DNA from: a phage | Length of the DNA: 64,000 bases | Strand: one strand, 5' to 3' | Sequence record: PZ445442.1 | In this document: in pieces, positions 26,828 through 63,542 of the stretch | Layout: every line of letters begins with the position of its first letter | Position numbering within the stretch: the first letter of the stretch is position 1 | Notes under the pieces: model-generated | What the model was told of the DNA's origin: nothing | What the model saw: the letters and a program-made list of their open reading frames with translations, nothing else | The model's database searches: none | Translations under genes and position numbers: made by a program

Positions 26828-28806
26828 TTGTAAACAGTAATGAAACTAAAGCAGTACTAACCGGAAATATGGAGGTCACCAGGGGCTCAATTTCTCTGAA
26901 CAAAGAGACTTTTGGGCTAATCATTAAAGGGATTTACGAAGATAAGGTGCTGGCAAGCTGCCGTGAACCAATCTTCAATGCTGTGGACTCCCATGTTGAG
27001 TCTGGACGGGGTGATGTACCTATCATCATTCACTCTCCTACAGACCTTGAACCATACTTCTTTGTGCAGGACGTTGGATTGGGCATGTCAGAAGAGATGG
27101 TCCGCAACACTTTCATGAATCTCGGGGAGTCAACCAAGCGCAACAGCAACGCTCTGGTAGGTAATAAAGGTGTTGGTTCAAAGGCTCCGTTCAGTATGGT
27201 GGACACTTTCGATGTTATCAGTGTGCACAATGGTGTTGAAAGCACATATCTATTGTTCTTGGATCAGGGTATCCCAAACGTTACCAAGATCCGCGAGCGA
27301 AAGACTGAAGAGCACAACGGGGTAAAAGTTCAGTTCCATGTTAAGAAAGAGCATGTTCTGAAATATCGCACTGCTATTGCGTCATGCCTACGCTATGCAA
27401 AGTTTCCGTTTACCGTTACCGACCCTATGACCAGTAAGATGCTGGAAGGTGACAAGGTTGAGGCGCAGTATCGCTACGAGAAAGATGGTTGGAAAATGAC
27501 TATCCTGAAAGGTTATACCAGCTCTGATGAGAGCCGTGTGGTGATGGGACACCAACCTTACCGCTCTAAGTTTCTGGAAACATTGACAGACTACCCTGCA
27601 ATCTGTGTAGAGATCCCTATCGGGGATTGCAATATTAACCCTGGGCGCGAATGGACCATAGAGGGGCACGACGATGGTGGATTCCAGGATCGCCTGGAGG
27701 CCTTTGTCAAAGAAGGTATACGTCTTCGTGGGGCAGAAGTTGTTGCGGAATTGGAGACAGCAAAAACATCCTCAGAAGCACGTGAGATGATGAAGAACAG
27801 TGGAGTGTTCGGACACATCTTCGGCAAAAACTTTATGTGGAACCGTTGGGAAGAAACAGGGCTTGGCGACTTAGGCGATTGTGAAATTTTCGCTGGCGGC
27901 TTAAATAAAGGCCGCATAGGCTATGCTCGTTACGGAAAGTCGGAGTTCTTACGAGGTGTATACCTTGTATTTAACGACGGAGACGGCAAATATAACCGAA
28001 ATAAGTGTAACTACTTAAGCGAGATCACCGGACGCAACGTTTTCTATTGCCGTAACACGGATCTGATGGAAGAGTTTAAAGAAGCGGCACACCACCCGTT
28101 CTTTGCAGATACGGTCAAATTGTTATCAGAGCTCCCTCGCCGTCCTGTAAAGAAAGGTGAAACAAAAACTCACTATGAGCCAGGGTATTGGGTTAAAAAA
28201 CTTGAGAAAGATGGTTACTTCCGTCGTGAGCGTATTACTAAGGCAGAGTTCAAGAAGATTAAGCACTGCATTCCTTATGAGGGTGATATCCAACGTGGAA
28301 GTTGTTGGCTGGGACAGCTAAGTAACATCTACCAGCAAAATTATGACCGTGTGCGTGCGGCACTCAAGATTCCTGAAGGGGAAGATCTGTACCTGGTATC
28401 AGAATCTCGTCTGCTTTGGACTGATCCTGATTGCCAGTATGTTACAGAGAAAAATGTGGAACATTTGTTGAAAGAGGACGCCTGGAAATTCTTACTGACT
28501 CGCGCAGCAAATGAAACTTCATATGACAGCCTGTATAGACAATTAGGGAAAATTATCCCCATGCAAGATTTTGGAAATTATCGGCCACATTTCCACAAGT
28601 GGGAAGGTAACACCGCGTGGAAGCACAGTGAGCTAAATCATCGTGCCAAAATCTTAATCGCCAACCGAGTCAAGTGCGGGAAGGCCTATATTGCAAGATT
28701 GGAAAAGAAATATCCACTTTTGAAGCATGTGGGCTTGAAATATTGGGACACTCCTGCTATGATTGAATACCGTGAACTGATCGACGCAAAGAATAACACC
28801 AAATAA
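26824..28806 (+). CDS. GHKL-type ATPase (Bergerat fold) protein
   Basis: 660 aa; N-box EPIFNAVDS, G1 box VQDVGLGMS, G2 box GNKGVGSKAPF in the N-terminal 150 aa. Confidence 0.5.
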   Translation: MIVNSNETKAVLTGNMEVTRGSISLNKETFGLIIKGIYEDKVLASCREPIFNAVDSHVESGRGDVPIIIHSPTDLEPYFFVQDVGLGMSEEMVRNTFMNLGESTKRNSNALVGNKGVGSKAPFSMVDTFDVISVHNGVESTYLLFLDQGIPNVTKIRERKTEEHNGVKVQFHVKKEHVLKYRTAIASCLRYAKFPFTVTDPMTSKMLEGDKVEAQYRYEKDGWKMTILKGYTSSDESRVVMGHQPYRSKFLETLTDYPAICVEIPIGDCNINPGREWTIEGHDDGGFQDRLEAFVKEGIRLRGAEVVAELETAKTSSEAREMMKNSGVFGHIFGKNFMWNRWEETGLGDLGDCEIFAGGLNKGRIGYARYGKSEFLRGVYLVFNDGDGKYNRNKCNYLSEITGRNVFYCRNTDLMEEFKEAAHHPFFADTVKLLSELPRRPVKKGETKTHYEPGYWVKKLEKDGYFRRERITKAEFKKIKHCIPYEGDIQRGSCWLGQLSNIYQQNYDRVRAALKIPEGEDLYLVSESRLLWTDPDCQYVTEKNVEHLLKEDAWKFLLTRAANETSYDSLYRQLGKIIPMQDFGNYRPHFHKWEGNTAWKHSELNHRAKILIANRVKCGKAYIARLEKKYPLLKHVGLKYWDTPAMIEYRELIDAKNNTK

Positions 28807-35140: not shown

Positions 35141-35804
35141 CTGGAGCAAGTATTTCACCTACAGTGACGGCAAACTGTTCTGGGCGTACACTGCAAAAGC
35201 CGGAAGGGGCAGGGTTATACATTACGCAGGTGAGGAGGCCACAGGCACAGATAAAAATGGCTATAGAGTGATATATGTGTCAGGTGTTGGGAGTGTTCGT
35301 AGGCATAGAATAGTTTGGGAGATGCATTACGGGGAGATACCTGAGGGACTTGTTGTGCGGCACAAGAACGACATAGCGGGCGATGATAGGGTAGAGAACT
35401 TAGTCCTAGGTACACAGGGCGATAATGCACGAGACATGATCTACAGTGACAAACTGAGCATTAACAATACCTCAGGGTGTAGAGGTGTACGCTACCATAG
35501 AGGCATAAAAAGATGGATTGCATCTGTTGGAGATATATACTTAGGGTGTTTTAAGACAAAAGAGGCTGCAATTGAATGCAGAAAGTTATGGGAGAAGGGA
35601 AAATTCGTCCCGCAAGAGTTGGATGTTAGAAACACTAGCGGTGTAACAGGGGTGTTCTATGTGCCGAGCTCTGGAAGGTGGAGAGTCAGAGTGCAAAGCG
35701 GCAAAAAGAGAAAGAGCTATGGCACTTACAATACTTTAGAAGAAGCAAAAACTGTAAGGGATAGAGTGATGAAAGAGATTGAGGAGTTTAAAGATGGGGA
35801 ATAA
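35133..35804 (+). CDS. HNH homing endonuclease with AP2-type DNA-binding repeats
   Basis: 223 aa; HNH region RHRIVWEMHYGEIPEGLVVRHKNDIAGDDRVENL; two AP2-like repeats (GCRGVRYHRGIKRWIASV, SGVTGVFYVPSSGRWRVRV). Confidence 0.6.
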   Translation: MVDWSKYFTYSDGKLFWAYTAKAGRGRVIHYAGEEATGTDKNGYRVIYVSGVGSVRRHRIVWEMHYGEIPEGLVVRHKNDIAGDDRVENLVLGTQGDNARDMIYSDKLSINNTSGCRGVRYHRGIKRWIASVGDIYLGCFKTKEAAIECRKLWEKGKFVPQELDVRNTSGVTGVFYVPSSGRWRVRVQSGKKRKSYGTYNTLEEAKTVRDRVMKEIEEFKDGE

Positions 35805-37872
35805 GTTTATATCCTCTGCATATAGCCGCTATGGAGAACCTAACCCAGTTGCAACAAGATACAAAAGTGGGGGTAGTATGAAACGAGACTATCGTGATGA
35901 AAAAGAGGTTGAAACTGTAGAGACTGTTTTAGAAAATACTAAAATTGTCCCTGTCCCACAACAAAATATCGGTCTGATGGCTGCACAATATTTTGGTGTG
36001 CGATCAGCATTGTCCCAAGAAGACGGTGTGACAGTCACTGCAACATATTTCCCATATTACGACCGATACGGAAATCTGTCCGGTTTCAAAAAGCGTGACT
36101 GGTCTAAGCCGAAAGAGCAGAAAGGGCACTGGTCTGTAGTAGGCATCGTAAAGGCCAACTCCCAGATGTTTGGTCAAAAGCTGTGTGCATCTTCCAACAA
36201 CCGTAAGCAGATCAACGTTTGTGAGGGAGAAGGTGATGTTATTGCAGCATGGCAGGCTGCATATCAGATACAAGTAAAAGGGATTCTCACCAATGCTAAA
36301 GCCCCGGCAAAGGTGAAGCAGTGGGCTAAAGAGGTCCAGGACGGGATCGATGCAGTTATCAACGGCGGTGATCTGGCAGGAAAACCCTGCCTGCCTTTTG
36401 TTGGAATTAACTGTGGATGTGCAAACGCAGTAGATACTTTTGCAAACAATGAGAAGTTTATCCGTAGCTATGGAACAGTTGTGCTGGCAATGGATAACGA
36501 TGCAGCTAACGAGGTAGAGAAGCAAAAACACGTCATTAAAGGTGTTGAGGCCACGCACAATATCGCAGCATTTTTAATGGCTGATAACGTTTACCACGTA
36601 GAATACCCTGGTGAAGTAAACGACCCTGACGGTGTAAAAGATATCCGAGACATGCTGAAGGCTAAAAAGCTGGAAGATATTGTCAACATGTTCCGGCATC
36701 CTGTTAAATATGTGCCTGATGCTGTGTCGGATTTAGAAGACTTCTCTATCGAGTCTTTGCGGAAAAAGACTTCCAACGGGGTAGATATCAGTGCAGAGTT
36801 CCCAAAACTGCAAAAAATGCTAAAAGGCTTGCACAAAGGGACACTCGTAATGCTTACAGGTCCATCAGGCGGCGGTAAAACAACCGTGGCTAAAAAACTG
36901 GAACACTGTATTGCAAGATACCTAATGGATCCGACATGCCAGAAGGCTGATGACTATGAAGAGGATGATCGTCTATGTATGATCCATCTTGAGGAGGACC
37001 CAGAGGAAGCAATTAACTCCTTGTATGCAAACCAGTTAGGGTTTGATGTTAAAGAGTTTGTTGAAGATCCTAGCCAGTTTTTAACTGATCAAGAACACGC
37101 AGAGATTCACCAATCATGGGCAAAAGCTGGAAAAATCAAAGTGTTCAAACATTTCGGGTCTATTCCGGTGGACGAGTTGATTACCAAGCTTAAGCAAATG
37201 GTTTGCCTGTACCATTGTCGTTATATTGTGCTGGATCACCTATCCATGGTAATTTCAGGGCTTAATGTTAAGGATGAGCGAAAAGAACTGGACATAGCTA
37301 TGACTCAGCTGGCTGCGTTTTGTAAGCAGTTTAATGTGTTTATCTTGGTGATCGCTCACCTCAAACGTACAGAGATTGTGCCTCCTAAGGACAAGGATGG
37401 TAACCCGTTACCTTTCTGGTATCCTGTGCGAAAAGAGAATTTGCGAGGATCGGCTGGGCTTGAGCAGTTGAGTTGGGTAGTCATAGGTGTCGAGGCCGAA
37501 GAAATGGTGGATCGTTCTCGTGGGCGTGTCCGTCTGGTAGGTCTTAAAAACCGTCCAGCAAAAACTTTAGGTATTGCTGACACTTTAGTTATGGACCCAC
37601 ACACAGGTAAGTTCCATGATGCCAGTAATTGGTACTGGGACAAAGAAATGCAAATGTTTACAGACGGAGAAGGTGGGGAGGTTGTTTGGAGACCTCAGGC
37701 TATGTTTGAGGATCAGGAGCATGCAGTTGTAGAAACACCTATGGGCAAGGTTGTGGCTGATAAGGTTGTAACTCCTACTGTTAAGTCTGTTGACACGCAG
37801 GAAGACCTCCAGTACGATGATCCATCCTCTGACCCGGTCCCCGGTTTTGAGGATGATGAAACGCCTTTTTAA
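35794..37872 (+). CDS. primase-helicase (T7 gp4-like: Toprim primase + DnaB-family helicase)
   Basis: Toprim-like CEGEGDVIAAW; Walker A LTGPSGGGKTT; Walker B YIVLDHLSMV; start ATG 35794 after RBS GAGGAG. Confidence 0.65.
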   Translation: MGNKFISSAYSRYGEPNPVATRYKSGGSMKRDYRDEKEVETVETVLENTKIVPVPQQNIGLMAAQYFGVRSALSQEDGVTVTATYFPYYDRYGNLSGFKKRDWSKPKEQKGHWSVVGIVKANSQMFGQKLCASSNNRKQINVCEGEGDVIAAWQAAYQIQVKGILTNAKAPAKVKQWAKEVQDGIDAVINGGDLAGKPCLPFVGINCGCANAVDTFANNEKFIRSYGTVVLAMDNDAANEVEKQKHVIKGVEATHNIAAFLMADNVYHVEYPGEVNDPDGVKDIRDMLKAKKLEDIVNMFRHPVKYVPDAVSDLEDFSIESLRKKTSNGVDISAEFPKLQKMLKGLHKGTLVMLTGPSGGGKTTVAKKLEHCIARYLMDPTCQKADDYEEDDRLCMIHLEEDPEEAINSLYANQLGFDVKEFVEDPSQFLTDQEHAEIHQSWAKAGKIKVFKHFGSIPVDELITKLKQMVCLYHCRYIVLDHLSMVISGLNVKDERKELDIAMTQLAAFCKQFNVFILVIAHLKRTEIVPPKDKDGNPLPFWYPVRKENLRGSAGLEQLSWVVIGVEAEEMVDRSRGRVRLVGLKNRPAKTLGIADTLVMDPHTGKFHDASNWYWDKEMQMFTDGEGGEVVWRPQAMFEDQEHAVVETPMGKVVADKVVTPTVKSVDTQEDLQYDDPSSDPVPGFEDDETPF

Positions 37873-37930: not shown

Positions 37931-40321
37931 ATGAGTATGTGGTCGTTCGATTTTGAGTCATCCGGTTTGCTGGAAGACCCAGATCTTTATTATCACTGCG
38001 GTCTGTTTAAAGAGCTGAATAAGAACCGTTTTATGCTGTTCCTTCCTCTAAATGACCGCACACACTACTCCGAGGAGGATATAGAAAAGGCTAAGAACTT
38101 CATTCTGGCAAAGAAAACTCTTTATAAAGATTTTGAAGTTCGCATAGCAGATTTTTCGGAGTTGGAAGGTTGGCTTACAGGCAATTCTGACTGGTCACCA
38201 ACAGCTTTGAACTGCCATAACTGCTACAGTTATGACTTTATGCTGATGGAAAGATTATCCGGTATTCATTTTGATATGTTCCGTGATCCTAAATGCATGG
38301 GGACTATCAACGATCACCAGGTTAACCTGTTTGATACGTTGGCGATGAGCCGAATCTTGTGGCCTGATCGCCCTTTACCAAAAGGTTGTCCGGACTCTGT
38401 ATTCAACCCGGTTACTAAGAAAATGCAGCCTGTTGGTCCCCACGGCCTTATGGCATGGGGCTACGCCCTTGGTAACCAGAAAGTTCAAATTGATGACTGG
38501 CGCGATCTTCCGTTGTGGAAGTATGTGGATCGTGTATTCGAGGACGTTATCATCCAGGAGCTGCTCTGGAAAGAGCTGGTAGCGGAATCAAAAGGTGTAT
38601 TCTACGGCAAATCTGACATGCAGAACTTTATGTACGATCCTGCCAAAGAGAAGCCGAAAGGGTTCAAGAAGATCACCTGGAAGAACGCATTACGCCGAGG
38701 CATGCTGCAGCACTTCCTGATGGAGCTGCAGGCCCGTCAGGGTGTGTATTTTGACATAGATGGAGCTATTGCTTTACGTGACCGTTGCGATGCGTGGATG
38801 AAAGAAATCGCTGATCGTGTTGAACCACAACTACCTTTAAAAGAGTTGTCAATGTCTCAGCGGCCCAAGTTCCCTGAAAAGCCGTTTAACCAAGATGGGA
38901 CAATCTCCAATAATGGTTGGAAATGGTTAAAAGATAAGCTTGGCTATCCTGTAGATATGAGCGCTTTAGAGTTCAAAGCCCCGCCTAAGCGAGCATTTAC
39001 CTCCACAGGGGATGTCAGCAAGATGGGGATAAAATGGTGTGAAGAGATGGGCTGCAAAGACCCTGATAAGATGGCTGATTTCTTGAGAGGCTATATTAAG
39101 GGCACTTCCACACCACAACCTTTACCTAAAGAGCTGATGGATCAGGCAATAAGTGATCTGCAGCAGAAGCGAATGCCTGACTGCAAGATACCTATGAAAA
39201 TCAGCAATCAGGACGACATTAAGCGGTATCTGATCAGTGCTGGCTGGCTCCCGACGATGTGGAGAACTAAGGATGTAACTAAAGACAGCAAGAAGAAAGC
39301 CCTACCTGATGCAGATGTTGATGCACGAGTATATGCATATATGGACGAGCTTTTAGAGTCAGAGTATTGTGATCTGATTATCAACTTCTGGAACAAAACT
39401 GATGCTAAGTTCCAGACAACCGTGCACAAGTTCCGAAGCTTTCCTAACTCCGAAAGGATTAAAAAGGAAGTATTCGGGAAAATACGTAGAAAAGCTAGGG
39501 CACTTATTACTTCTCCGCAACTGAAAGATACGTTTGGACACCTATGCCCGAATCTTGAAAAATTGAACGGAGAGATGGCTAAAGATATCGTCTTGTGGTT
39601 ATCTTTGCGAAACCGCAGATCGGTACTTGATCCAATCAAGGAGGATAAGGTTGATACTGGTCTTCTTAATCACCCACGTTTGAAGATTGACCATAAGCTT
39701 CCTGCTAAAAGCTCTGGATTAACAAACACTTCCAGACAGAAACACAGTATTTGTGCAAACATGCCTAAACCATCTCCTAAAGTGGTCATGGGTAAAGAGA
39801 TGCGTAGTCTGTGGGGTGTTCCTCCAGGATACTTTGAGATCGGTATTGACGGGTCCAACTTAGAGCAGCTTATCGGGGCTTGGGGTGCCTTTGAGTTCGA
39901 CAACGGATTGTATTATGATGTTGTAAGTAACGGGGACGCACACCAAAACAATGCTGAAGCATATACAAAAGTGGCAGGCAGAGAGGTGTCTCGTAACGAC
40001 GGTAAACCTATCACGTATGGGGTTATGTATGGGGCACAAAAAGATAAAGTTGCAGATATGCTGGACATCTCTCCAGAACTGGGGCAGAGAGTAATTGATG
40101 CTCTCTGGGATGCCAACCCAGGTCTTAAGGGGCGCAAAGAGGATCTGGAGAAATTCTGGGAAGCAACAGGTAAGAAATTTATCTACTCTTTTGACGGGCA
40201 TGCCATTTGGACCCGCTCTAAACACTCTTTGCTTAATGCATATCAGCAAAATGGCGGTGCATCGTTGTGCGACTTGGTCGGAATCCTCATGCACCACCAA
40301 ATGGTGAAGCGTGGATGGTAT
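37931..40321 (+). CDS. family A DNA polymerase, exon 1 (3'-5' exo + polymerase motifs A and B)
   Basis: Exo I FDFESSGL; motif A GIDGSNLEQLIGAW; motif B KPITYGVMYGAQ; track ORF runs 12 codons further into the intron to a stop at 40360. Confidence 0.65.
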
Positions 40322-41196
40322 GATGAAGGTGTTCGTCGTATTATTTATTACCATAAATAACATTGTGGCTTCGTGCAGTGATGCACGTCGAAAACCTCTT
40401 TAATTGACGGGAAGGCTAAGTTGACTTTTACACCTAAACATGGTAAAAGCTCAATATGCTAATCCGCAGCGAAGACTAAAGGGGTGTAGTTAAAATGGCT
40501 AGATCAGTTGATTATCACGGATATACCGTGTTTGATGATGGAACAATACCTTTATCGAAACGTGATCATACAACAATGTTCTGTTTTGATAATGGTCGAG
40601 GTTACCTTTGCGTAACCATGTTCATCGAGGGGAAGCAGTGCACAAAAGGTGTCCACCACTTGGTTGCTGAATGCTTTGTATCAAACCCTGATCCTGAAAG
40701 GCTCACATGGGTGAACCATAAGGACGGAAACAAATACAACAATGCATACTGGAACCTTGAATGGACCACCCCTGGTGGAAATATCAAACACGCTTATGAT
40801 AATGACCTCAGAGTAAGGCCAGTCGGTGAGTATAATGCCAACGCTGTACTGACCGAGGATGAGGTAACGGAGATTTGCGAACTGTTACAAAGTGGTTTAC
40901 GACAATGCGAGATTAGGGATCTTGGGTATCCTTATGAGACGGTCAGAGCCATAAAGCAAAGAAGACAGTGGAAACATATCTCTAAAAACTACACCTGGTA
41001 GTAACGTTCAGAGACTATCGAAAGCATAGCGCCAACATAAATTGGTGCGAAGAAGCGAGTAGAGTAGGCCAGCAAGTGCGGTCGAAATGGGAGGTGCCTT
41101 GGTAACAAGGTAGTGAGATAGTCCGATCCATACAGGAAACTGTATGGCTGTGCACGTAATGGTGCGGGGTAGCTTAACGACCTACCTGAACTATTG
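40322..41196 (+). mobile_element. group I intron with HNH homing endonuclease ORF, inside the DNA polymerase gene
   Basis: Elements matching the conserved P (AATTGACGGGAA, 40402-40413), Q (AATCCGCAGC, 40461-40470), R (GTTCAGAGACTATC, 41006-41019) and S (GAGATAGTCC, 41115-41124) sequences; P9-like hairpin CCATACAG-GAAA-CTGTATGG (41128-41147); U at -1 (40321) and terminal G (41196); boundaries inferred. Confidence 0.6.
40495..41001 (+). CDS. intron-encoded HNH homing endonuclease
   Basis: 168 aa; HNH region GVHHLVAECFVSNPDPERLTWVNHKDGNKYNNAYWNLEW; lies between intron Q and R elements. Confidence 0.65.
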   Translation: MARSVDYHGYTVFDDGTIPLSKRDHTTMFCFDNGRGYLCVTMFIEGKQCTKGVHHLVAECFVSNPDPERLTWVNHKDGNKYNNAYWNLEWTTPGGNIKHAYDNDLRVRPVGEYNANAVLTEDEVTEICELLQSGLRQCEIRDLGYPYETVRAIKQRRQWKHISKNYTW

Positions 41197-43336: not shown

Positions 43337-43725
43337 TGAAAAATATTTGGGATATCGATATCTTTGAAGCCTCTAAGCTTGACGGTGCTGATGGAGTGAT
43401 TATGGTGTCTGATGGCAAGGCAACACTAACTTCCGGAGATATCATCTATGCCTTGGACGAGCTGGCGCTTCTGAAATCTACCGGTAACACTTTGGAGGAG
43501 CGTCTTCAAGGATTCTCTTTCAAAGAAGGTACAAATACAGCCATGATGTGCACCACACGGACAGTTCAGGTTGGTAACGGTGTCTATATGATTATTGCTG
43601 TGTGTCCTAAATTCAGCAACGTCAACAAAGATGATGCTGACGCGGTCAACGATGTGGTTGTTCTCTTCGTGGGTGACGCTATGGCAGATCTGATGAATGC
43701 AGGAGAAGCAGCAAATGAAGACTGA
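43333..43725 (+). CDS. hypothetical protein
   Basis: 130-aa ORF, ATGA overlap. Confidence 0.45.
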   Translation: MMKNIWDIDIFEASKLDGADGVIMVSDGKATLTSGDIIYALDELALLKSTGNTLEERLQGFSFKEGTNTAMMCTTRTVQVGNGVYMIIAVCPKFSNVNKDDADAVNDVVVLFVGDAMADLMNAGEAANED

Positions 43726-44017
43726 AAACATCACCCCAGCAGGGTTCTTAAAAGTATACCGTGAACTGCTATATACTACAGAGGACAGTGTTCTAGAGTA
43801 TCCAGAATATCTTTTGCTGTATAAGTATCTGCAGGAGGCTGGTGAAAATCTGCCAGTTAGTGCAGAAGGTGGTCCAAACTGGATATACAGCGCATGGAGA
43901 AAGGTTGACATTCTCCCAGACCCAGGTAAAGATATGGTAGTTTGGCAGCTTATCAACAACATCGGGATTCCAATCTTTGATGAAGCTGTTAAAATCTATT
44001 TTGAACTTGACGATTAA
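43715..44017 (+). CDS. hypothetical protein
   Basis: 100 aa from ATG 43715 (RBS AGGAGA); the track ORF starts 18 nt earlier. Confidence 0.4.
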   Translation: MKTENITPAGFLKVYRELLYTTEDSVLEYPEYLLLYKYLQEAGENLPVSAEGGPNWIYSAWRKVDILPDPGKDMVVWQLINNIGIPIFDEAVKIYFELDD

Positions 44018-44363: not shown

Positions 44364-44729
44364 ATGGAACAAATGAACGATCAAGCGTCGGTTGCGATGA
44401 ACGAGCAAGAACAACCTCAAGAATTTTTCTTAGGGTTAAGTAAAGATCAAGTGTCTCTTCTGCTAGTGCTTTCTTCTTTCATGGGAAGACTTCAGGAGCT
44501 TACACAACAGCCAGAGGCTGAACAATTATTCCAGGCTCTGCGTGAAGAAGAAAAATATCGTCGTTTGGACTATGCCTTAGGTTGGGTAGCTCAACAACGA
44601 GATATGCTGATGGCCCTCTCTGGGACCACAAGTTTTGCAATGGGCCTGTTGGCTCAAGTTCAGGACAAATTAATTCAAGCAGGGTTTGCACACACGGCAA
44701 ACACTAACGAAGAACAAGGAGATAAATAA
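44364..44729 (+). CDS. hypothetical protein
   Basis: 121-aa ORF, RBS GGAGA. Confidence 0.45.
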   Translation: MEQMNDQASVAMNEQEQPQEFFLGLSKDQVSLLLVLSSFMGRLQELTQQPEAEQLFQALREEEKYRRLDYALGWVAQQRDMLMALSGTTSFAMGLLAQVQDKLIQAGFAHTANTNEEQGDK

Positions 44730-46000
44730 TGAGCGTTATTCAACAATTCGCTAACCCGATGAATCCGCGTGAAACTGTTTTACTAGCTCACGGCATGATT
44801 AAACGTGTCAGCATCAAGCCTATCAAAGGTGCTGATCCTACAACAGGTATTAAAACCACTGTGTGGCAAGGTAAGAAAATTGAATCCAGCCACACCATCT
44901 CTTTACTGATTTCTGAACTGGATTCCTCTGATAACCTACTTCAAGGTGGTGAAGAAGTTTGGATCAGTATGGGCGATAAGCTGCTTAAACCAGGTCATCA
45001 AGACTCTGTCTCTGTTAAAATTGATGACAAGTGGGAAACCGTAACGCCAGGATGGATCGTAAATATCCCTTTGAAGGCAAACGAGCATAACGGTAAGACC
45101 TACTACAAAGGCTCACTGGCTAAGATGGTTAAGCTGGGTGCAGGAGAGGCTCCAGCAGCGACTCAGCAGCAAAAACAGCAACAAGGTGCACAATCACAAG
45201 GCCAGAAGCAGAAACCTCAGCAGAATGCCAATCAGGGCGTTTTACGCATCTATGGTGATGTGACTCAGATTGTTGGCAACGTGGTTACTGTTAATGACCA
45301 CAAGATTGGCGAAGGTGCTATGGTTGTAACTGATGAGCAGCTTAAAGACCTAGTGGTAGGTGGTCGTGTTGCAGCCATTGTTGACAAAGACACCGGAAAC
45401 ATTATCAGTGGTTTCAAGGCCTATCCTCCTAAGGCAGAGAACGGTACTCAAGGCTCCGGTGGCAAGCGTAAATCCTCTTACGACCCTATTGGTGTGGAGA
45501 CGGGGCATAGCATCAATGCGTTGCAGATCATCCTGGATCGCGGGTTTAAGGTGGACGACCCACTAGGTGTGGCTAAAACACTGCACGTAGTCACCATTGA
45601 GCTTAAGAAAGAGTATGCTCAAGCCACCAACCGAACTGAAGATGAAGTAGGTGCCAGTGTCGGTAATGCGGTGTTGAACGCTTGTCGCCGTATTGACAAG
45701 AAAACGAAAGTTGATGATTTTGCAGCGGCAATTACTGCAGAAGCAAAAGATGTCTTGACTAATCTGGCTGAGCCGTTGTACGATTGGATCAAGAACGGTG
45801 CTGAGTCCACTGACCATCAAGAACCTCAAGCTGCCAAACAGGAAGCCGCTCCACAGCAAAACACTGTAGACGCACCTCCTGTAAATGATGAGGAAGATGA
45901 CCCGATGGGTCAGAATCCGGCGCAGTATGACTTCTGTGATGACATACCTTTCGCTCCGGTAGGTTTGCAATATGGCAAAAGTAGAATCCACGCATTGTAA
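44729..46000 (+). CDS. putative ssDNA-binding protein (SSB-like acidic tail with DDIPF)
   Basis: 423 aa; Gln-rich linker and acidic C-terminal region ending ..[22 protein letters not shown] plus a 17-aa extension that overlaps the next gene. Confidence 0.45.
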
Positions 46001-46595
46001 GAGGTGCATCAAGTGCGGAGAGGTGAAAGACATCTCCGAGTTCTACAAACACCCAAAGATGTCTGACGGTCATCTTAATAAGTGCAAAGAGTGTTGCAAG
46101 AAGGCCAGCAGGGAGGCTGACCAATTTTCCCACGACTCTTCAGAAAAAGGTGTAATACGCGTGCTGTACAAGGCTCAAAAGTGCAACAGCAAGCAAAGAG
46201 GTCACCCGCCTCCGACTTACACCAAAAAAGAGTTTAAGGAGTGGCTATACCTAAACGGTTACAAAGAGTTGTATGATCAGTGGGTAGCCAGCGGATACGA
46301 CAAAAGGAAAAAGCCTTCTTGTGACAGGATAGATGATTTCAAAGGGTACTCTTTTGATAATATCCGTTTAACGACTTGGGGAGAAAATAAAGACAAGCAG
46401 ACAGAGGATATTCTGTTGCATAGAAGCACCAGCGGTAGACGGTGTAAAAATGTAAGGAGGCTGGACATGAATGGCAACGTTCTTAAAGAATGGGTATCCC
46501 ACAATTCTTGTAGAAGAGAAACCGGAATATGTGTTGATTACTACATTCATGAAAAAATTCCAGCCCCAGATGGATACCTCTACGAATACTTTTAG
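45972..46595 (+). CDS. HNH-type homing endonuclease with N-terminal zinc finger
   Basis: 207 aa; CKRCIKCG...CKECCKK zinc-finger-like; [23 protein letters not shown] nuclease motif; overlaps the 3' end of the SSB-like gene. Confidence 0.5.
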
Positions 46596-48818: not shown

Positions 48819-49010
48819 ATGGTAATTTTTAACCGGGATGGTATCATAGTTAGACAGCACCCGTTCCTTGAATACTATCAAATTGAGCAATGGTGCTACG
48901 GGGATTGCAGTCACTCCTATGGGCAAAGTTGGGGATATCGTACAGTTTTTGAATCCACAGACCTTGACAAAGTAAAACAGAAAGTTTTAGAACTTCTTAA
49001 CAACAAGTGA
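48819..49010 (+). CDS. hypothetical protein
   Basis: 63-aa ORF. Confidence 0.35.
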   Translation: MVIFNRDGIIVRQHPFLEYYQIEQWCYGDCSHSYGQSWGYRTVFESTDLDKVKQKVLELLNNK

Positions 49011-49020
49011 GTATCGTGCC

Positions 49021-49353
49021 ATGGTAACATTGGAAAGACGTAAAGCTATTGCCGCCACACTGGCAGACATCTTTTGGGATTGTAATTTAAAATCTACCCG
49101 AAATTGTGGTGCATCTGTAGATGTATTATTCCCACGGCCTACTATTGTTGCAATGGGCAACCTGCTCGATGTGGTATATGGAGCATGGGACAAGGAAGGT
49201 GGATTCTATATCTGGCAACCTGACTACGGGACTTGGAAAGAGGTTAGTGGTTCTTCGGACTTCACTCCTGCAGTGGCTAAAATGGATGGCTGGAAAATCT
49301 ATGTCGGTAACGACATGGAACTGAAAGGCGAAATTGTTTACTGGTTACCTTAA
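49021..49353 (+). CDS. hypothetical protein
   Basis: 110-aa ORF. Confidence 0.4.
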   Translation: MVTLERRKAIAATLADIFWDCNLKSTRNCGASVDVLFPRPTIVAMGNLLDVVYGAWDKEGGFYIWQPDYGTWKEVSGSSDFTPAVAKMDGWKIYVGNDMELKGEIVYWLP

Positions 49354-49374
49354 GAAAGTCCAGGAGATAAAGTT

Positions 49375-49620
49375 ATGAACAAAGGGTGGACATTTGTAGA
49401 CGGCGTTAAAAACATGCCTCTAGGAAAGTATATTGTAGCCATGGCAGATGAGAATGGCAAGGTTGATTTCGGAGTTTGCGAGGTTGTTCTTGCAGGATCT
49501 GGTGACTATGCTCACAAAACTGGGATAATTAACGGTCATTTCTACTTTGATTACAACCCTGTTGTGGCGTATATGGCTATGCCAGAGTTCGAGCTCCCAA
49601 AGGAAGGTGCAGATGTTTAA
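49375..49620 (+). CDS. hypothetical protein
   Basis: 81-aa ORF, RBS AGGAGA. Confidence 0.45.
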   Translation: MNKGWTFVDGVKNMPLGKYIVAMADENGKVDFGVCEVVLAGSGDYAHKTGIINGHFYFDYNPVVAYMAMPEFELPKEGADV

Positions 49621-49810
49621 GCTTAAATCTGCATGGAACATCGCTGTGGGGGACGAGATCCGTATCCCAGGTGGAAAGACCATTATGAAAATATCTCGTA
49701 TCGAGTACGAAGGTGATCGTGTATTTCATATCTTTGCAGAAGATGGTCGAGAAATTTATATACAGGCAGGCTCTCACATCTATATTCGTAAGAAAGGGGA
49801 GGACAAATGA
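49613..49810 (+). CDS. hypothetical protein
   Basis: 65 aa from ATG 49613 (RBS AAGGAAGG), start overlaps upstream stop. Confidence 0.4.
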   Translation: MFKLKSAWNIAVGDEIRIPGGKTIMKISRIEYEGDRVFHIFAEDGREIYIQAGSHIYIRKKGEDK

Positions 49811-50136
49811 CAGAGATCATCATTTCAACTGCAGGGTATGTATTCCTGACAATCATTGCGCTGACTATTCTGGTGGCGGTGTATGGATTTGTTATCCTTC
49901 CTATTCTTGAGACATTTAGTTTGTGTCGGTGTTGGAGAAAAGCTTACGGTCCACAACCATGGAAGGACTGGCCCCACCTGGTGCGCTTAGCGTTCTCTTA
50001 TGCTTACGATCACTCCAGTAGTGCATGCATAACCGGATACCACGCCCACAACTGGAGCTGGGAAGGGTTGAGGAAATGGAATGTTACAAAGACCATACCT
50101 CTGCGCATGTACAAACCTAAAAACAAAGACAACTGA
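49807..50136 (+). CDS. hypothetical membrane protein
   Basis: 109 aa with N-terminal hydrophobic segments; ATGA overlap with upstream gene. Confidence 0.45.
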   Translation: MTEIIISTAGYVFLTIIALTILVAVYGFVILPILETFSLCRCWRKAYGPQPWKDWPHLVRLAFSYAYDHSSSACITGYHAHNWSWEGLRKWNVTKTIPLRMYKPKNKDN

Positions 50137-50439
50137 TACTTGAAAATTCCTGGCATATCAAGTATAAGGGGGATTTCTAAAATGGATTTCCTCCTTTTGA
50201 TATTTCACCGGGCTGGATATTTTAAAATTCTTAGAAAATCAGAAAATGGATCGAAAACTAAAATGGATTTTTCAGAGTAGGCGCGACAAGCTGAATAGCT
50301 CATCCTATCGTTTGCACCATATTCCAGACCACCATTATAGATTTCCCACACATGCTAACCTCCCTCTACTAGAACTTCCTCCACTTACCCTTGACCTTCT
50401 ATGGTAACAATCTAACCACTATCTTGAAGTTGCGGTGCA

Positions 50440-50640
50440 GCTTTCCAGGTACTCGATCTACTTTTCATTTCAGGGCTTGGATTTTCTGAAAATTTTTCTC
50501 GATAAATTTCTCAGTACTCGATCTGTTTTTCGTTTTCTGAATCGGATTTTCTGGAAATCGTTCCGGATCTCGACCTGAAATTTTTGGGGACGAAATCTAT
50601 TTTTCGTTTTCAGAAATGGATTTTTAAAATTTCTATATGG
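50440..50640. repeat. iteron-like imperfect tandem direct repeats in non-coding region
   Basis: Three units of roughly 55-65 bp each containing GTACTCGATCT / TTTTCGTTTTC / GGATTTTCTG; AAAATGGAT recurs at about 50180, 50243, 50260, 50613. Confidence 0.5.
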
Positions 50641-50770
50641 GAATATTTTATGGGGCACTGTTTTATAGGAAATTGTTACGGAGGGTAATTAGCATGCTAA
50701 TTAAATTTATTAAATGCGAGGGATTCTTATTTAGAATTTTGAATGATAATTATTCTCGTTTGCAGAATAA

Positions 50771-50812
50771 CGGGCAGGCCCGGTGATTGTCTCCCGGCCC
50801 CTGCTGCCCCGG
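50771..50812. repeat. GC-rich palindromic element (copy 1)
   Basis: GGCAGGCCCGGTGATTGTCTCC core; inverted copy at 60344-60389. Confidence 0.45.
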
Positions 50813-50908
50813 CTTGTTATTATAGTATCACACAGGACAAAGAAGGCAAGGATTTTTTGCATAAATTTTTAAATGATAATGATAACCGTTCTCATTTTAT
50901 GAAGCGCC

Positions 50909-50950
50909 CATCCCCGGTGGTTGTCTCCCCCGTCACCGGTGCCTGCCGTC
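50909..50950. repeat. GC-rich palindromic element (copy 2, divergent)
   Basis: CCCCGGTGGTTGTCTCCCCCGTCACCGGTGCCTGCC, related to copy 1. Confidence 0.4.
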
Positions 50951-51101
50951 CTTTCGATAGGTATATTATGCCGCCTGGCGGGGCCGCTGTCAACACTTTT
51001 CAAAAAATTTTTCTAACCTGATGCGCTAACCGTTGCAACCTGGCGGGGCCAGCCTGGCAGGTCCGCACTATAAAGTAAACAGCTACAGAAGAGGTACAAA
51101 A

Positions 51102-51227
51102 ATGAAAGGTAATGCTACTCGCCTGGGAAATGTAGTGATTAATGATACGGAAGCTATCGCCCTGGTTGAAAAGGTTATGGCGGGAGCGTTGGAACATAAA
51201 GAAGAGTACGAAAAAAATGGTGGTTAA
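51102..51227 (+). CDS. small early protein
   Basis: 41 aa from ATG 51102 with RBS AGAGG; the track ORF upstream overlaps repeats. Confidence 0.35.
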   Translation: MKGNATRLGNVVINDTEAIALVEKVMAGALEHKEEYEKNGG

Positions 51228-51280
51228 CCTGGCGGGGGGCGGCAGGTGGATTCTATCATAAAAATAATTTAAAATAGTCG

Positions 51281-51308
51281 TTGACAACAAGGTTAATCAT
51301 GGTATTAT
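51281..51308 (+). promoter_or_regulatory. sigma70-like promoter
   Basis: TTGACA-16nt-TATTAT upstream of 51359 gene. Confidence 0.5.
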
Positions 51309-51358
51309 TACCCTACAAGGTGAACAACACCGCACTAACCAGTAAAGAGGATAAATTT

Positions 51359-51556
51359 ATGAACGCATACGGGATCAAAGTACGTCGCAACACTCGCCAG
51401 GTGGTCACCAATCAAGTGATTTGCCGGGTGGATGTAACCATCAACAACGGGCAAGGCCTTTATAAATTTCGTCGCGGCCATAGCTATACCCTGCAACAGC
51501 TTAATCGTTGCGCCCTGACAAAAGGTCAGATCAACCACTGGTTTAATAAAAAATAA
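51359..51556 (+). CDS. small early protein
   Basis: 65 aa from ATG 51359 (RBS AAAGAGGA); the track ORF start coincides with the promoter -35. Confidence 0.45.
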   Translation: MNAYGIKVRRNTRQVVTNQVICRVDVTINNGQGLYKFRRGHSYTLQQLNRCALTKGQINHWFNKK

Positions 51557-51559
51557 GTA

Positions 51560-51588
51560 TTGACATACAGTCCGACACCAAATACACT
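51560..51588 (+). promoter_or_regulatory. sigma70-like promoter
   Basis: TTGACA-17nt-TACACT upstream of 51621 gene. Confidence 0.5.
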
Positions 51589-51620
51589 AAAAGCACAAAA
51601 GACACTAAGAGGATAAAATC

Positions 51621-52019
51621 ATGAAAACCACTACCTTTAATTTTGATAATGCAGACTTTTCTTTTTCTGATGTCAAGAACTGCCGCCGTGATCGTGGATT
51701 TTACAAGGCTTATAATCTGGTGGGCCTGGACGATGACAATAATTTGCACGAAGTAGCTGAGATCCGGTATTATGCCGCCGCCAGCGGGAACACTCACTAC
51801 TGCGTGTTTTGGATTCACGACAACAAGAACAATAAGTACGGTTATACTGGCGGCAAGGCGAGCGGTCACGGTTACGATAAAGCTAACGCAGCACTTGAGA
51901 GCGCATTAAATGCTATGGGGATCACTGCCGACGGCTGGATCTACGAAGAAGAGTTTTTGTCGGCACTTGCTGACCACCTGGGCTATAAAAAACACATTGT
52001 AACATGCGCCCACGAATAA
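51621..52019 (+). CDS. hypothetical early protein
   Basis: 132-aa ORF, RBS AAGAGGA. Confidence 0.5.
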   Translation: MKTTTFNFDNADFSFSDVKNCRRDRGFYKAYNLVGLDDDNNLHEVAEIRYYAAASGNTHYCVFWIHDNKNNKYGYTGGKASGHGYDKANAALESALNAMGITADGWIYEEEFLSALADHLGYKKHIVTCAHE

Positions 52020-52025
52020 AAATCA

Positions 52026-52053
52026 TTGACACGCTGCAAAATTTAAGTAAACT
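52026..52053 (+). promoter_or_regulatory. sigma70-like promoter
   Basis: TTGACA-16nt-TAAACT; followed by stem-loop 52064-52082. Confidence 0.45.
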
Positions 52054-52063
52054 AGACACAAAA

Positions 52064-52082
52064 GGCGGGAATGTTTCCCGCC
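52064..52082 (+). other. 5'-UTR GC stem-loop (GGCGGGAA-TGT-TTCCCGCC)
   Basis: Perfect 8-bp stem, 3-nt loop, no downstream T-tract; between promoter and RBS of 52102 gene. Confidence 0.5.
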
Positions 52083-52101
52083 AGCACAAAGGAAAAAGAT
52101 C

Positions 52102-52497
52102 ATGAATAAGAACGTACGCCGCATCATGAACGAACTGGCAAACGATGAAAAAATTATTGATATGCATTTGGTCAACATTTGCCGCCGTTGTGTAACATAT
52201 AACAACCGCGCCGCAAAAGCGCGTGAGATGAACGCAAAAGGCACCTTAAAGCCCTTTCAGGTGGTTGTAAAATCTATAACTAGCGCAGCAGGCCAGGCGC
52301 AGGACCACAACAACGAGAGCGCTAATATTGATCCGTCTTACGTAATGAAACGGATCCGGACTTGCAAGAATAAAGAGCAGGTATATAACGTCATAGATTG
52401 GCTGGACTCCCTGGGCGATGTGGTTTACAATAGGTTTTCTGCAGCTATCGAGATCCAGCTTGACAGATTGGACGGGAAAGTACTAAAAACTTATTGA
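52102..52497 (+). CDS. hypothetical early protein
   Basis: 131-aa ORF, RBS AAAGGAAAAAG. Confidence 0.5.
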   Translation: MNKNVRRIMNELANDEKIIDMHLVNICRRCVTYNNRAAKAREMNAKGTLKPFQVVVKSITSAAGQAQDHNNESANIDPSYVMKRIRTCKNKEQVYNVIDWLDSLGDVVYNRFSAAIEIQLDRLDGKVLKTY

Positions 52498-52499
52498 GT

Positions 52500-52545
52500 T
52501 TATTTTTAGATGGCCTTGACACCAGGGCCATCAATAAAGTAAACT
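52500..52545 (+). promoter_or_regulatory. repeated palindrome-containing promoter cassette, copy 1
   Basis: TTATTTTTAGATGGCCTTGACACCAGGGCCATCAATAAAGTAAACT; TTGACA flanked by inverted repeat GATGGCC/GGCCATC; near-identical copies at 53120 and 56853. Confidence 0.5.
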
Positions 52546-53526: not shown

Positions 53527-54066
53527 ATGATCAGCGGGGCAAGTTTTATTATTGGCGCTATTGCTACGGCTTTAATTGTAAATAAGATCCAGGATAAAAA
53601 GGAAAGAGGAAGTACCGCCCTTGCAGAATATCCATTTTGGGCATTCAACGATAACGAAGATTATATTATAAAGTATAAAAATAAAGAAGGTGACCAAGTA
53701 ACACCGCGACCGATCCCGGCTTACAAAATGCAGGAAACACTATACCGCCTGGAGGCGGGAGGCGCAAAAATTGTAGACTTTTGGGGATACGACCACACAG
53801 ATCAGGAAGTTATAAAGCGCCGTATCCGGGCTATTCAGGCCAATATTGAAGTTAGCAAGGGGGAATATATGAAAATTAATTTCGAGAAAATTGTAAAGCG
53901 CCCTCATGATTCCGAAGAGCTGCCAGAACGCCGCCAGCGTAACAATAAACTGAATAAGCCAAAAAGGTTTGGGAAGATCTGGCGTAATCATTATGATCGT
54001 AAATTGCCCGGCCTACTTTTGGAACGTGAACGACAGGCAGAACGATACCGCCATAAAGACAAATAA
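53527..54066 (+). CDS. hypothetical membrane-anchored early protein
   Basis: 179 aa; N-terminal hydrophobic helix then basic C-terminus; RBS AAAGGAGAAAG. Confidence 0.5.
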   Translation: MISGASFIIGAIATALIVNKIQDKKERGSTALAEYPFWAFNDNEDYIIKYKNKEGDQVTPRPIPAYKMQETLYRLEAGGAKIVDFWGYDHTDQEVIKRRIRAIQANIEVSKGEYMKINFEKIVKRPHDSEELPERRQRNNKLNKPKRFGKIWRNHYDRKLPGLLLERERQAERYRHKDK

Positions 54067-60300: not shown

Positions 60301-60330
60301 AACAGGGCTTGCAATGGTCCTGTTTTTTGT
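60301..60330 (+). terminator. Rho-independent terminator
   Basis: AACAGG...CCTGTT stem followed by TTTTTG. Confidence 0.45.
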
Positions 60331-60343
60331 TATACTTGTTTCA

Positions 60344-60389
60344 CGGCAGGCACCTGGCGACGGGTGGAGACAATCACCGGGCCTGCCTG
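60344..60389. repeat. GC-rich palindromic element (inverted copy)
   Basis: GGCAGGCACCTGGCGACGGGTGGAGACAATCACCGGGCCTGCC; reverse complement matches the 50771 core. Confidence 0.45.
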
Positions 60390-60412
60390 TCATATAAGAA
60401 CTATAAAAACCG

Positions 60413-62835: not shown

Positions 62836-63542
62836 TAATTTTTGAGAAAATAGTCTATACGTGAACAGTAAGGCATGCAATAGTAACAATTGTTATTGTA
62901 TCCAGTGTGTTGAGTATGCCCAGTATGTCACCATTGTGTCCAGTATGTCAGACAAGTTTTCCTCCTCTTTGTCAAGTGCTGCATGAAAAATTTACAAACT
63001 GGTATGGTAGCATTTTTGCGGCCCTGTTTACATTCAGTAATGTATGTATAATCCTTGTTGTGTGGGCGTTTAGACGTCTAGACGGTTGGAAGTCTACAGG
63101 TCAATATCTAATCTATTGGCTGCTAACTATATCCCACACAAATAGTAAGAAATATGATTGTTATATGCGTAAACTGTAACTCATGTTATCAATCCCTGTA
63201 TGTATCACCAGTGGTGCGCATAATGGGTATTATGTTAAATTGCCCGTAATGATAACTATTCTCACAATGATAGGTATTCTCATTCACCCCAACAAAATAG
63301 GTTGCAAATGTTGTGCCACTGTGTGAACGGCCTCACCTATTAATTTGCCTCACTGCCTCGATATTTGAGAATTATTATAAAAATGAGAAGTATTCCCATT
63401 CCGTCCGCCTGGCAGCACTCCAGTCGCTACGGCTCCTGACAGGGCAGCACTCCTGTAGGTCAGGTCAAAATCGGGGTAGAACTGGACCTGTTCAGATATT
63501 TCTGGCTGACTCTTCAGGTCTGTGTGGGAAAAGCCAACCTCT

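Follow-up and report, generated by a model that had tools for sequence, protein, structure and literature searches.

What does a gap of about 1 kb do in the genome of a phage? The window analysed here, i.e. the whole stretch of 64,000 nucleotides (nt) from sequence record PZ445442.1, belongs to a Vequintavirus (rV5-like myophage). Its last upstream gene on the plus strand stops at 50136 and the next convincing gene begins at 51103, which bears out the claim of an earlier reading of this DNA, made without database searches, that about 1 kb lacks a convincing open reading frame (ORF). This sequence-only reading had proposed that tandem repeats in the gap constitute a replication origin or another protein-binding array. 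The present analysis supports a functional, selected array and not an artefact, since the layout recurs in relatives and the homologous region of phage Bas54 does not tolerate insertions. The origin part of the proposal is not established, as neither an initiator nor DnaA boxes were found. We infer that positions ~50171-51060 form a composite cis-acting region that serves as the transcription-activated, iteron-type main origin of Vequintavirus and its relatives, and we assign a probability of about one half to this reading. It is favoured because an indispensable non-coding region combines co-evolving repeats, unwinding-prone DNA, operators and tandem promoters in a phage with a T7-type replisome.

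The element is undescribed in the rV5 genome paper (PMC3606486), which sought an origin, found none and marks only a "non-coding" box here, and in the transposon study of Bas54 (10.1101/2025.11.20.689424). A search of the literature returned no description of an origin for this subfamily and none of Fur-box-like sites in virulent phages.

Insertions in the gap and its coding capacity

For this locus, the published map of transposon insertions in Bas54, a Vequintavirus also named MaxBurger (10.1101/2025.11.20.689424, Extended Data Tables 2 and 8), was re-read. The gap ORFs of Bas54 were placed on the window by alignment, and the counts cover the annotated ORFs bas54_0100-0102. Positions 50450-50850 of the window lie at about 81.5-81.9 kb in Bas54 and 83.1-83.5 kb in Bas49, and Modules A and B at 81181-81474 in Bas54. 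Only 6 of their 29 TA sites were hit, versus 348 of 376 in the flanking genes (Table 1), and the genes neighbouring the gap have 150-600 reads per site (10.1101/2025.11.20.689424). The insertion-free bas54_0101 corresponds to 50612-50712, where the DNA of the region is least stable. Polar effects can be excluded because insertions just downstream are tolerated.

According to the annotation, the gap would contain small protein-coding genes, namely an "essential" 34-amino-acid protein (bas54_0101) and a 92-amino-acid protein (bas54_0102). Both strands indeed contain several ORFs of 30-92 amino acids, which a number of records annotate, and the frame 50694-50786 has a GGAGGG box 7 nt upstream. 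However, annotators differ over which of them to call, so that GenBank annotation is inconsistent among records, and other genera lack equivalent ORFs despite a conserved DNA layout. Moreover, all candidate frames are stopped or frameshifted in EPFV3, YP6, HMD6 or EdH4. The frame 50584-50688 and the minus-strand frame 50658-50470 have premature stops in EPFV3, YP6 and HMD6, while 50435-50578 has a frameshift in YP6 and 50743-51021 one in EdH4. In EdH4, the frame 50694-50786 is interrupted by a stop, and three phages have a changed version of its ribosome-binding box; its codon changes are mostly non-synonymous (about 7 to 1 synonymous). Judged by these changes, the gap ORFs do not behave as coding, each being broken in some viable relative, and it is extremely unlikely that the annotated proteins account for the requirement. 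The sequence-only reading had listed a minus-strand ORF (50470-50658) as the only ORF and as an artefact; there are several on both strands, and its non-coding character is borne out by the stops in relatives. Most likely, bas54_0101 and bas54_0102 are part of a DNA element and not genes. As the gap ORFs are not genes, the requirement would be for the DNA or its transcript in cis.

Three iteron-like units

A repeat finder returned three copies at 50439-50485, 50504-50550 and 50578-50624, with 70-77% identity over 47 nt. Box A (GTACTCGATCT or GGACGAAATCT) starts at 50449, 50514 and 50588, resulting in spacings of 65 and 74 bp. The ungapped self-alignment score is 20 at both offsets, whereas 300 dinucleotide shuffles had a mean of 9.0 and a maximum of 14, and none reached 20. 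Tandem Repeats Finder does not report the array because the copies are too diverged. The three imperfect tandem units proposed earlier are thus real in number and exceed all shuffles, with the correction that their spacing is 65 and 74 bp and not 55-65 bp.

Two further modules lie to the left of the units (Table 1). In Module A, AAAATGGAT is present in exact form at 50179, 50243 and 50260, i.e. within 90 bp, and the plus strand of the whole 64 kb holds just 4 AAAATGGAT. A version shorter by one base, AAATGGAT, is found at 50614; of the four motifs claimed earlier, three are therefore exact and the fourth is this shorter form. The skew of Module B lies in the lowest 0.13% of 165-bp windows. Duplex stability in the region is lowest in the 40-mers that begin at 50612 (-41.1 kcal/mol) and 50676 (window mean -52.2, threshold of the lowest 1% -44.1). 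The G+C content in 200-nt sliding windows is 34-42% over 50100-50899 and 49-55% over 50800-51099, compared with 38-50% in the preceding 3 kb, so that the earlier description as AT-rich DNA fits the former part of the gap and not the latter. The gap has four Dam (GATC) sites, three of them inside box A; this is the expected density, and the idea of an enrichment was dropped.

Conservation within Vequintavirus and across genera

The region 50100-51150 is 100% identical in Escherichia phages naswa, magaca and EmilHeitz (Bas49), and 85-97% identical in about 115 further Vequintavirus (rV5-like) genomes. For the within-genus analysis, ten Vequintaviruses were aligned, and YP6 was left out for Module A and the upstream gene. 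The fraction of invariant columns is 86% in Module A (50171-50280, nine phages; 68% with YP6), 87% in the three units (50446-50640), which have zero indel columns in the ten phages, and 86-90% in 50701-50965. The spacer (50281-50445) has a value of 43% and is the least conserved part of the gap. The respective values are 75% for the upstream gene and 52% for the first downstream gene. In YP6, the upstream gene is swapped for an HNH endonuclease gene (761-1405 of the stretch read) and the non-coding layout still starts at Module A, so that the control region does not depend on the gene that precedes it.

Sensitive blastn matched other genera only at 50700-50836 (76-86% identity), a segment that is unannotated there. 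Loci were read directly in Seunavirus GAP31 and PVP-SE1, Certrevirus PcCB7V, CR3 and KaOmega, Mydovirus KPP-1, Serratia phage ChuuTotoro, W70, and Phapecoctavirus ukendt. All of them have one architecture, whatever the gene upstream (HNH endonuclease, NADAR protein or unknown). It starts with two to four copies of GATATTTG and GAAAT-type short repeats (GAP31, PcCB7V, KPP-1, ChuuTotoro, W70, PVP-SE1, CR3 and KaOmega) and continues with a variable spacer of 160-200 bp. Then follow three units of 58-78 bp, composed of box A, a TTTTTC tract, box B (ATCGTATTTT or TGGATTTTC) and usually the GAAAAAATTTTT bend, an A+T-rich stretch of 60-90 bp, one to four operators AATGAKAAT-N-ATTCTCATT, a conserved G+C box, and minus-strand sigma-70 promoters. 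The exact operator spacing of 29 bp is found in five of the six other lineages scanned, i.e. those with at least two operators; W70 has one. A scan of IMG/VR for the operator and the G+C core yielded 11 contigs of 83-152 kb, all 11 with tandem units at offsets of 63-78 bp. Comparison with related phages, which the sequence-only reading had proposed as a check, thus revealed the three-unit layout in every related genus examined.

Box A is uniform within a genome and varies by lineage (GTACTCGATC, GGTCTCGATC, GAGAACTTGAGAGG or GACTTGAGRGG). This pattern looks like concerted evolution, as is typical of iterons bound by a co-evolving protein. The iteron boxes probably bind a phage-encoded protein, because they differ between genera.

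Operators, G+C boxes and minus-strand promoters

The sequence-only reading had covered only part of the element: it recognized the repeats but neither the operators and the G+C box nor the minus-strand promoters, and it did not note the motifs that recur at the genome terminus. The operator palindrome is confined, within the 64 kb, to the gap (50713, 50742 and 50878) and the terminal repeat (63248, 63266 and 63382), i.e. six sites versus 0.4 expected. The G+C box reads GGAGACAAYCACCGG along the direction of transcription and is found immediately downstream of three different promoters in constant orientation. In the gap, each minus-strand promoter is followed by a copy of the box and then by operators, and both promoters, P(-)1 and P(-)2, are directed at the A+T-rich stretch 50612-50712 and the array. 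A terminator-like hairpin at 60304-60330 overlaps the promoter TTGCAA-16-TATACT and precedes the third G+C box.

Table 1. Positions of features in the window, with TA-site counts and fitness classes of the corresponding Bas54 genes (10.1101/2025.11.20.689424)
Feature	Position	Strand	Remarks
Module A, short repeats right after the upstream stop codon	50171-50280	+	GATATTT at 50199 and 50216; three AAAATGGAT; GAAAAT/GAAAAC runs
Module B, variable C-rich, G-poor spacer	50281-50445	+	C/G 2.4, GC skew -0.41
Iteron-like unit 1	50447-50511	+	GTACTCGATCT, TTTTC, TTGGATTTTCTG, GAAAATTTTTC
Iteron-like unit 2	50512-50585	+	also partial extra box GGATCTCGACC at 50564
Iteron-like unit 3	50586-50640	+	diverged box A GGACGAAATCT
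A+T-rich, least stable stretch, between units and operators	50612-50712		candidate unwinding/initiation zone
Two palindromic operators AATGAKAAT-N-ATTCTCATT	50713-50731, 50742-50760		29 bp apart
Operator 3, AATGATAACCGTTCTCATT	50878-50896		overlaps 16/19 match to classical Fur box at 50875
Conserved G+C box, copy 1	50766-50812	-	reads GGAGACAATCACCGG on the minus strand, just downstream of P(-)1
Conserved G+C box, copy 2	50900-50950	-	GGAGACAACCACCGG on the minus strand, downstream of P(-)2; repeat family with 134-bp spacing
P(-)1, predicted sigma-70-like promoter	50849 to 50819	-	TTGCCT-19-TATAAT, 10/12; alternative TTGCCT-16-TACTAT with extended TG
P(-)2, predicted sigma-70 promoter	50993 to 50965	-	TTGACA-17-CATAAT, 11/12
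Strong promoter for downstream early-type genes	51281-51308	+	TTGACA-16-TATTAT with extended TG; right edge of control region
G+C box, copy 3 (GGAGACAATCACCGG)	60340-60395	+	in plus-strand leader, just downstream of promoter TTGCAA-16-TATACT
Homologue of the 459-bp direct terminal repeat	62951-63409		carries the sole other operators of the window (63248, 63266, 63382)
Primase-helicase, T7 gp4-type	35779-37872	+	phrog_239 and DnaB_C matches
Family A DNA polymerase	37931-40360	+	phrog_17, E = 1e-90
423-amino-acid SSB-like protein	44729-46000	+	phrog_4477; family consensus ends DFDDDIPF, the bacterial SSB C-terminal tip
bas54_0088-0099	upstream flank		227/250 TA sites hit; non-essential or reduced fitness
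bas54_0100	50432-50578		1/3 TA sites hit; not classified
bas54_0101	50584-50688		0/11 TA sites hit; Essential
bas54_0102	50743-51016		5/15 TA sites hit, ~13 reads per site; Strong fitness defect
bas54_0103-0109	downstream flank		121/126 TA sites hit; non-essential, bas54_0103 intermediate

The tandem minus-strand promoters are kept in six of seven lineages. In this phage, transcripts from them are predicted to start near 50812 and 50958. The equivalent of P(-)1 scores at least 9/12 in GAP31, KPP-1, PcCB7V and ChuuTotoro, and about 8/12, by eye and without a scoring tool, in W70 and ukendt. That of P(-)2 scores at least 9/12 in GAP31, KPP-1, ChuuTotoro, W70 and ukendt, and is missing in PcCB7V. 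The minus-strand ORFs of at least 150 amino acids that are nearest to these promoters are more than 4 kb to the left (43426-43962, 39860-40363 and 36004-36558) and are candidate ORFs only.

The Fur box of Enterobacterales, GATAATGATAATCATTATC or the 7-1-7 core TGATAAT-N-ATTATCA, is shared among this order, and the hosts of these phages are all Enterobacterales. Of 19 positions, 15-18 in the operators agree with the extended Fur palindrome AATGATAAT-N-ATTATCATT (17 for the operator at 50742) and 14-16 with the classical box, the 19-mer at 50875 reaching 16. Where the Fur box has GATAA/TTATC, at least one half-site of an operator is nearly always GAGAA/TTCTC. The deviation is symmetric and consistent, and suggests that the specificity is altered or differs from that of Fur. 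The operator spacing of 29 bp also differs from the 6-bp register of Fur arrays. Because the operators and the G+C box are near-identical across genera with diverged proteins, they probably bind a host factor, for which Fur is the closest match by sequence.

Promoters without a nearby ORF to express are also what would be expected of an essential non-coding RNA or a transcription-control hub. A minus-strand transcript of ~600-700 nt, or shorter, would regulate the early-to-middle switch by antisense or convergent interference with plus-strand transcription, or by protein binding, and the repeats and operators would set its level. The conservation of the promoters, the roadblock position of the operators downstream of them, the constant orientation of the G+C box directly after three promoters, and the intolerance of the zone to insertions in Bas54 are all compatible with this alternative; the C-rich spacer would, in addition, be a Rho-loading site for plus-strand read-through. 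Other observations speak against it. The folding of both strands is no better than that of shuffles (z = -1.7 for the plus and -0.8 for the minus strand), and Rfam has no match in 49000-52500, i.e. 3.5 kb around the gap, at E values up to 10, and none in the GAP31 locus at E values up to 1. The G+C box has no conserved fold or covariation in 10 sequences (consensus fold -0.89 kcal/mol, three pairs), and the conservation across genera is limited to repeated DNA boxes and their spacing, with no continuous RNA sequence. Furthermore, the genes on either side are dispensable, so that their misregulation should not kill. We therefore regard an RNA or a control hub as rather unlikely.

Several more specific candidates were dropped. 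No tRNA or known RNA was found in the gap, and the whole window is devoid of tRNA genes. The G+C box as a terminator or structured leader was rejected in view of the lack of a conserved fold and of the copy at 60378, which lies in a 5′ leader that needs read-through. A long-range RNA pairing of 50351-50380 with 50667-50696 has one variable and one invariant arm without compensation. A CsrA-type GGA sponge RNA was discarded because GGATTTT becomes ATCGTATTTT in other genera, and N4-like hairpin promoters at CCTGGCGGGGCCAG were discarded once the phage was recognized as a Vequintavirus, a group without a virion RNA polymerase.

Some further elements were observed in the vicinity. In the window, CCTGGCGGGG occurs three times in exact form, always on the plus strand (50974, 51039 and 51228); one copy is a CTGGC-GGG-GCCAG hairpin and one lies inside the P(-)2 spacer. 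The stretch 51039-51100 is rich in indels among relatives. An extra, highly conserved element ...CTACCGGCGATCCACCTTCC...GTTAGCCCCGCCTTTWCGCCGTGGGGTGGCG... is found in GAP31 (2660-2765 of the stretch read), KPP-1, ChuuTotoro, W70, ukendt, PVP-SE1, CR3 and KaOmega; it lies downstream of the second minus-strand promoter except in PcCB7V, where this promoter is missing. GAP31 (DUF7170), W70 (phrog_19316), KPP-1, ChuuTotoro and PVP-SE1 have a small annotated minus-strand gene. Both the element and the gene are absent from this window, and no Rfam match was obtained.

Comparison with known origins

The T7 primary origin lies upstream of gene 1.1 and has an A+T-rich segment preceded by two tandem promoters, phi1.1A and phi1.1B. 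The gap resembles it in having two tandem promoters aimed at an A+T-rich, easily melted stretch, in its internal location about 9% from an end with a short direct terminal repeat, and in the company of a gp4-like primase-helicase and a family A polymerase. A gene with the T7 gp1.1 domain (PF08200) is also present, 2.4 kb downstream here and immediately downstream in T7. In contrast, the promoters are of the host sigma-70 type and not of the phage-polymerase type, T7 has neither iterons nor palindromic operators, and the two sequences are not similar; for the present phage, priming by transcription is putative.

Iteron origins (lambda ori, P1 oriR, F, RK2, pPS10 and SPP1 oriL) share with the gap direct repeats that evolve in concert within a genome, an A+T-rich unwinding region, and inverted-repeat operators at a promoter. 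By eye only, a loose likeness is seen between box A (T[T/A]CTCG) and the operator half-site (TTCTCA), as is the case for Rep iterons and operators. Differences are the length of the units, 65-75 bp instead of 17-22 bp, their number of just three, and the lack of an adjacent initiator gene and of DnaA boxes; in addition, the promoters do not drive a rep gene. The R-loop origins of T4 (oriF/oriG) and ColE1 likewise have a promoter followed by an unwinding element, and the template here would give a G-rich transcript; however, the skew is not kept in all genera, and an R-loop or RNA processing is conjectural for the gap.

Taken together, these likenesses are compatible with the following sequence of events. 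Host RNA polymerase would start at the tandem minus-strand promoters P(-)2 and P(-)1, cross the G+C boxes and the palindromic operators, and reach the A+T-rich stretch, which melts easily, and the three units, which would be bent and bound by protein. This leftward transcription would open or prime the DNA for the T7-like primase-helicase and the family A polymerase. In this phage, the spacer, being C-rich as a template, would yield a G-rich RNA and favour R-loops, and the operators would gate the firing of the origin.

Several observations weigh against an origin. No initiator or Rep-like gene adjoins the array, and the flanking proteins have no DNA-binding or Rep domain in Pfam or PHROGs; they had been considered as DNA binders and were dropped, as nothing recognizable was found. 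The upstream neighbour itself varies between phages (HNH endonuclease, NADAR domain protein or a family of unknown function). DnaA boxes (TTWTNCACA) are missing in 50137-51102, and the whole window has four versus 8.8 expected. The C-rich spacer behind the R-loop idea is not kept in every genus: ChuuTotoro and W70 have it, three other genera show a weaker bias, and in KPP-1 the bias is reversed. The skew analysis of rV5 gave no origin signal (PMC3606486). The insertion data stem from Bas54, which is about 92% identical to this phage in the region, and an essential non-coding RNA would yield the same insertion pattern. Lastly, the terminal-repeat region is also insertion-free and non-coding and shares the operator and GATATTT motifs, and it could be the origin instead.

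The terminal repeat and the location of the gap

Vequintaviruses have direct terminal repeats of 458-459 bp (PMC6563267, PMC7471380). In the EdH4 record, the first 459 bp are identical to the last 459 bp, and both map to 63409-62951 of the window. The physical end thus lies at 63409, after ...CCGTCCGCC, and the operator at 63382-63400 ends 9 bp from it. Repeats of GATATTT(G), similar to those in Module A, are again present at 63360, 63495, 63640 and 63655. The repeat is embedded in a second non-coding region of more than 2 kb, from 61960 to beyond 64000, and the description of the window as otherwise tightly packed therefore does not hold. This region also contains two copies each of ATGCAAACGAATGGCATGGC and CCGGCGGGGCAGGGG and a perfect inverted repeat of 18 bp (62648/62782). 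It corresponds to the ~2-kb insertion-free region between bas54_0134 and bas54_0135, the only one on which the authors of the Bas54 map remark (10.1101/2025.11.20.689424). The possibility that the gap is itself a genome terminus in a permuted assembly was dropped, because the EdH4 repeat maps 12 kb away. The gap is internal, 12.3-13.3 kb (~9-9.6% of roughly 138 kb) from the physical end that bears the terminal repeat, and ~11 kb of small plus-strand genes, transcribed towards this end, lie in between.

The motifs shared with the terminus might indicate an accessory site for packaging or concatemer processing, i.e. a second platform for terminase or an end-binding protein that acts together with the terminal repeat. 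The confinement of the operator palindrome to the gap and the terminal repeat, with one copy 9 bp from the end, the recurrence of GATATTT beside the repeat, and the absence of insertions from both regions in Bas54 would fit such a role. However, exact repeats of 459 bp imply cuts at the repeat boundaries, about 12 kb away, and the iteron box is absent from the terminal region. Packaging signals of terminal-repeat phages are known at the concatemer junction, which also counts against this idea, and we consider it hardly probable.

The location also invites a comparison with the injection stop signal (iss) of T5, found in Repeat Region 3 of its left terminal repeat. Both are conserved, untranslated, repeat-dense stretches of ~1 kb at 8-9% from an end that are better conserved than the neighbouring ORFs and have motifs in common with a repeat region nearer the end. 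By analogy, the terminal-repeat end would enter first, transfer would pause at the protein-bound array while the ~11 kb of early genes are expressed, and the inward-facing promoters would then help to pull in the remaining genome. The distance of the gap from the end compares well with the 7.9% of the T5 first-step transfer (10.1101/866236), the intervening genes are small and transcribed towards the end, and high sensitivity to daunorubicin is shared by Vequintaviruses and T5-like phages (PMC13250531), which is a correlation only. In contrast, the T5 signal has conserved paired DnaA boxes inside inverted repeats (10.1101/866236), a feature of 25 of 25 T5-like phages (Davison, 10.1101/866236) that is lacking in the gap. 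Furthermore, the terminal repeat here has 459 bp and not ~10 kb, so that the array lies outside it in unique DNA, the phages belong to another virus family with another tail type, and no report of two-step injection exists for these phages with contractile tails. A site of the T5 kind is thus quite improbable.

Neighbouring genes and records

The sequence-only reading had placed the array downstream of primase-helicase, polymerase and SSB genes, and all three are indeed found upstream on the same strand (Table 1). The DNA_pol_A match of 37931-40360 has 27.9 bits, below the Pfam cut-off of 34.3 bits. The protein encoded by 44729-46000 had been considered as an initiator, which was dropped because its family carries the SSB tail DFDDDIPF and it is thus an SSB-like protein; gene order and the TA-site count point to the essential bas54_0087 as its likely counterpart. 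The ORF 45972-46595 (207 amino acids) follows this gene; in EmilHeitz (Bas49), the counterpart of this ORF carries the annotation of a putative homing endonuclease. A RIIA-like protein (phrog_612) is encoded at 26824-28806. Downstream of the gap, 53527-54066 encodes a protein of 179 amino acids that matches, in its C-terminal part, the family of the T7 gene 1.1 protein (PF08200); its counterpart, as judged from gene order, would be bas54_0110, which was called essential in Bas54. Sixteen records labelled "Campylobacter phage" (host C. jejuni) have 94-97% identity to the gap region of this E. coli phage, and their labels look like contamination or mislabelling.

Implications

The outcome is a conserved cis element of 0.6-0.9 kb with a defined list of parts, the homologue of which is indispensable in Bas54. 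Two "essential or strong-defect hypothetical proteins" of the published essentiality map are probably cis DNA, and the gap is unsuitable as an insertion site in phage engineering. The rV5-like phages are common in therapy and biocontrol cocktails. The results also raise the possibility that host Fur is connected with phage replication. In the most far-reaching form of this idea, Vequintavirinae and Phapecoctavirus would wire a host metal-sensing repressor, i.e. Fur or a Fur-like 7-1-7 factor, into origin firing and genome ends; we regard this as unlikely, and if true, the iron status of the host would gate phage DNA replication and early transcription. If the element is truly an origin, it would combine iterons, a T7-like layout of promoters and A+T-rich DNA, and Fur-like operators that are shared with the genome end.

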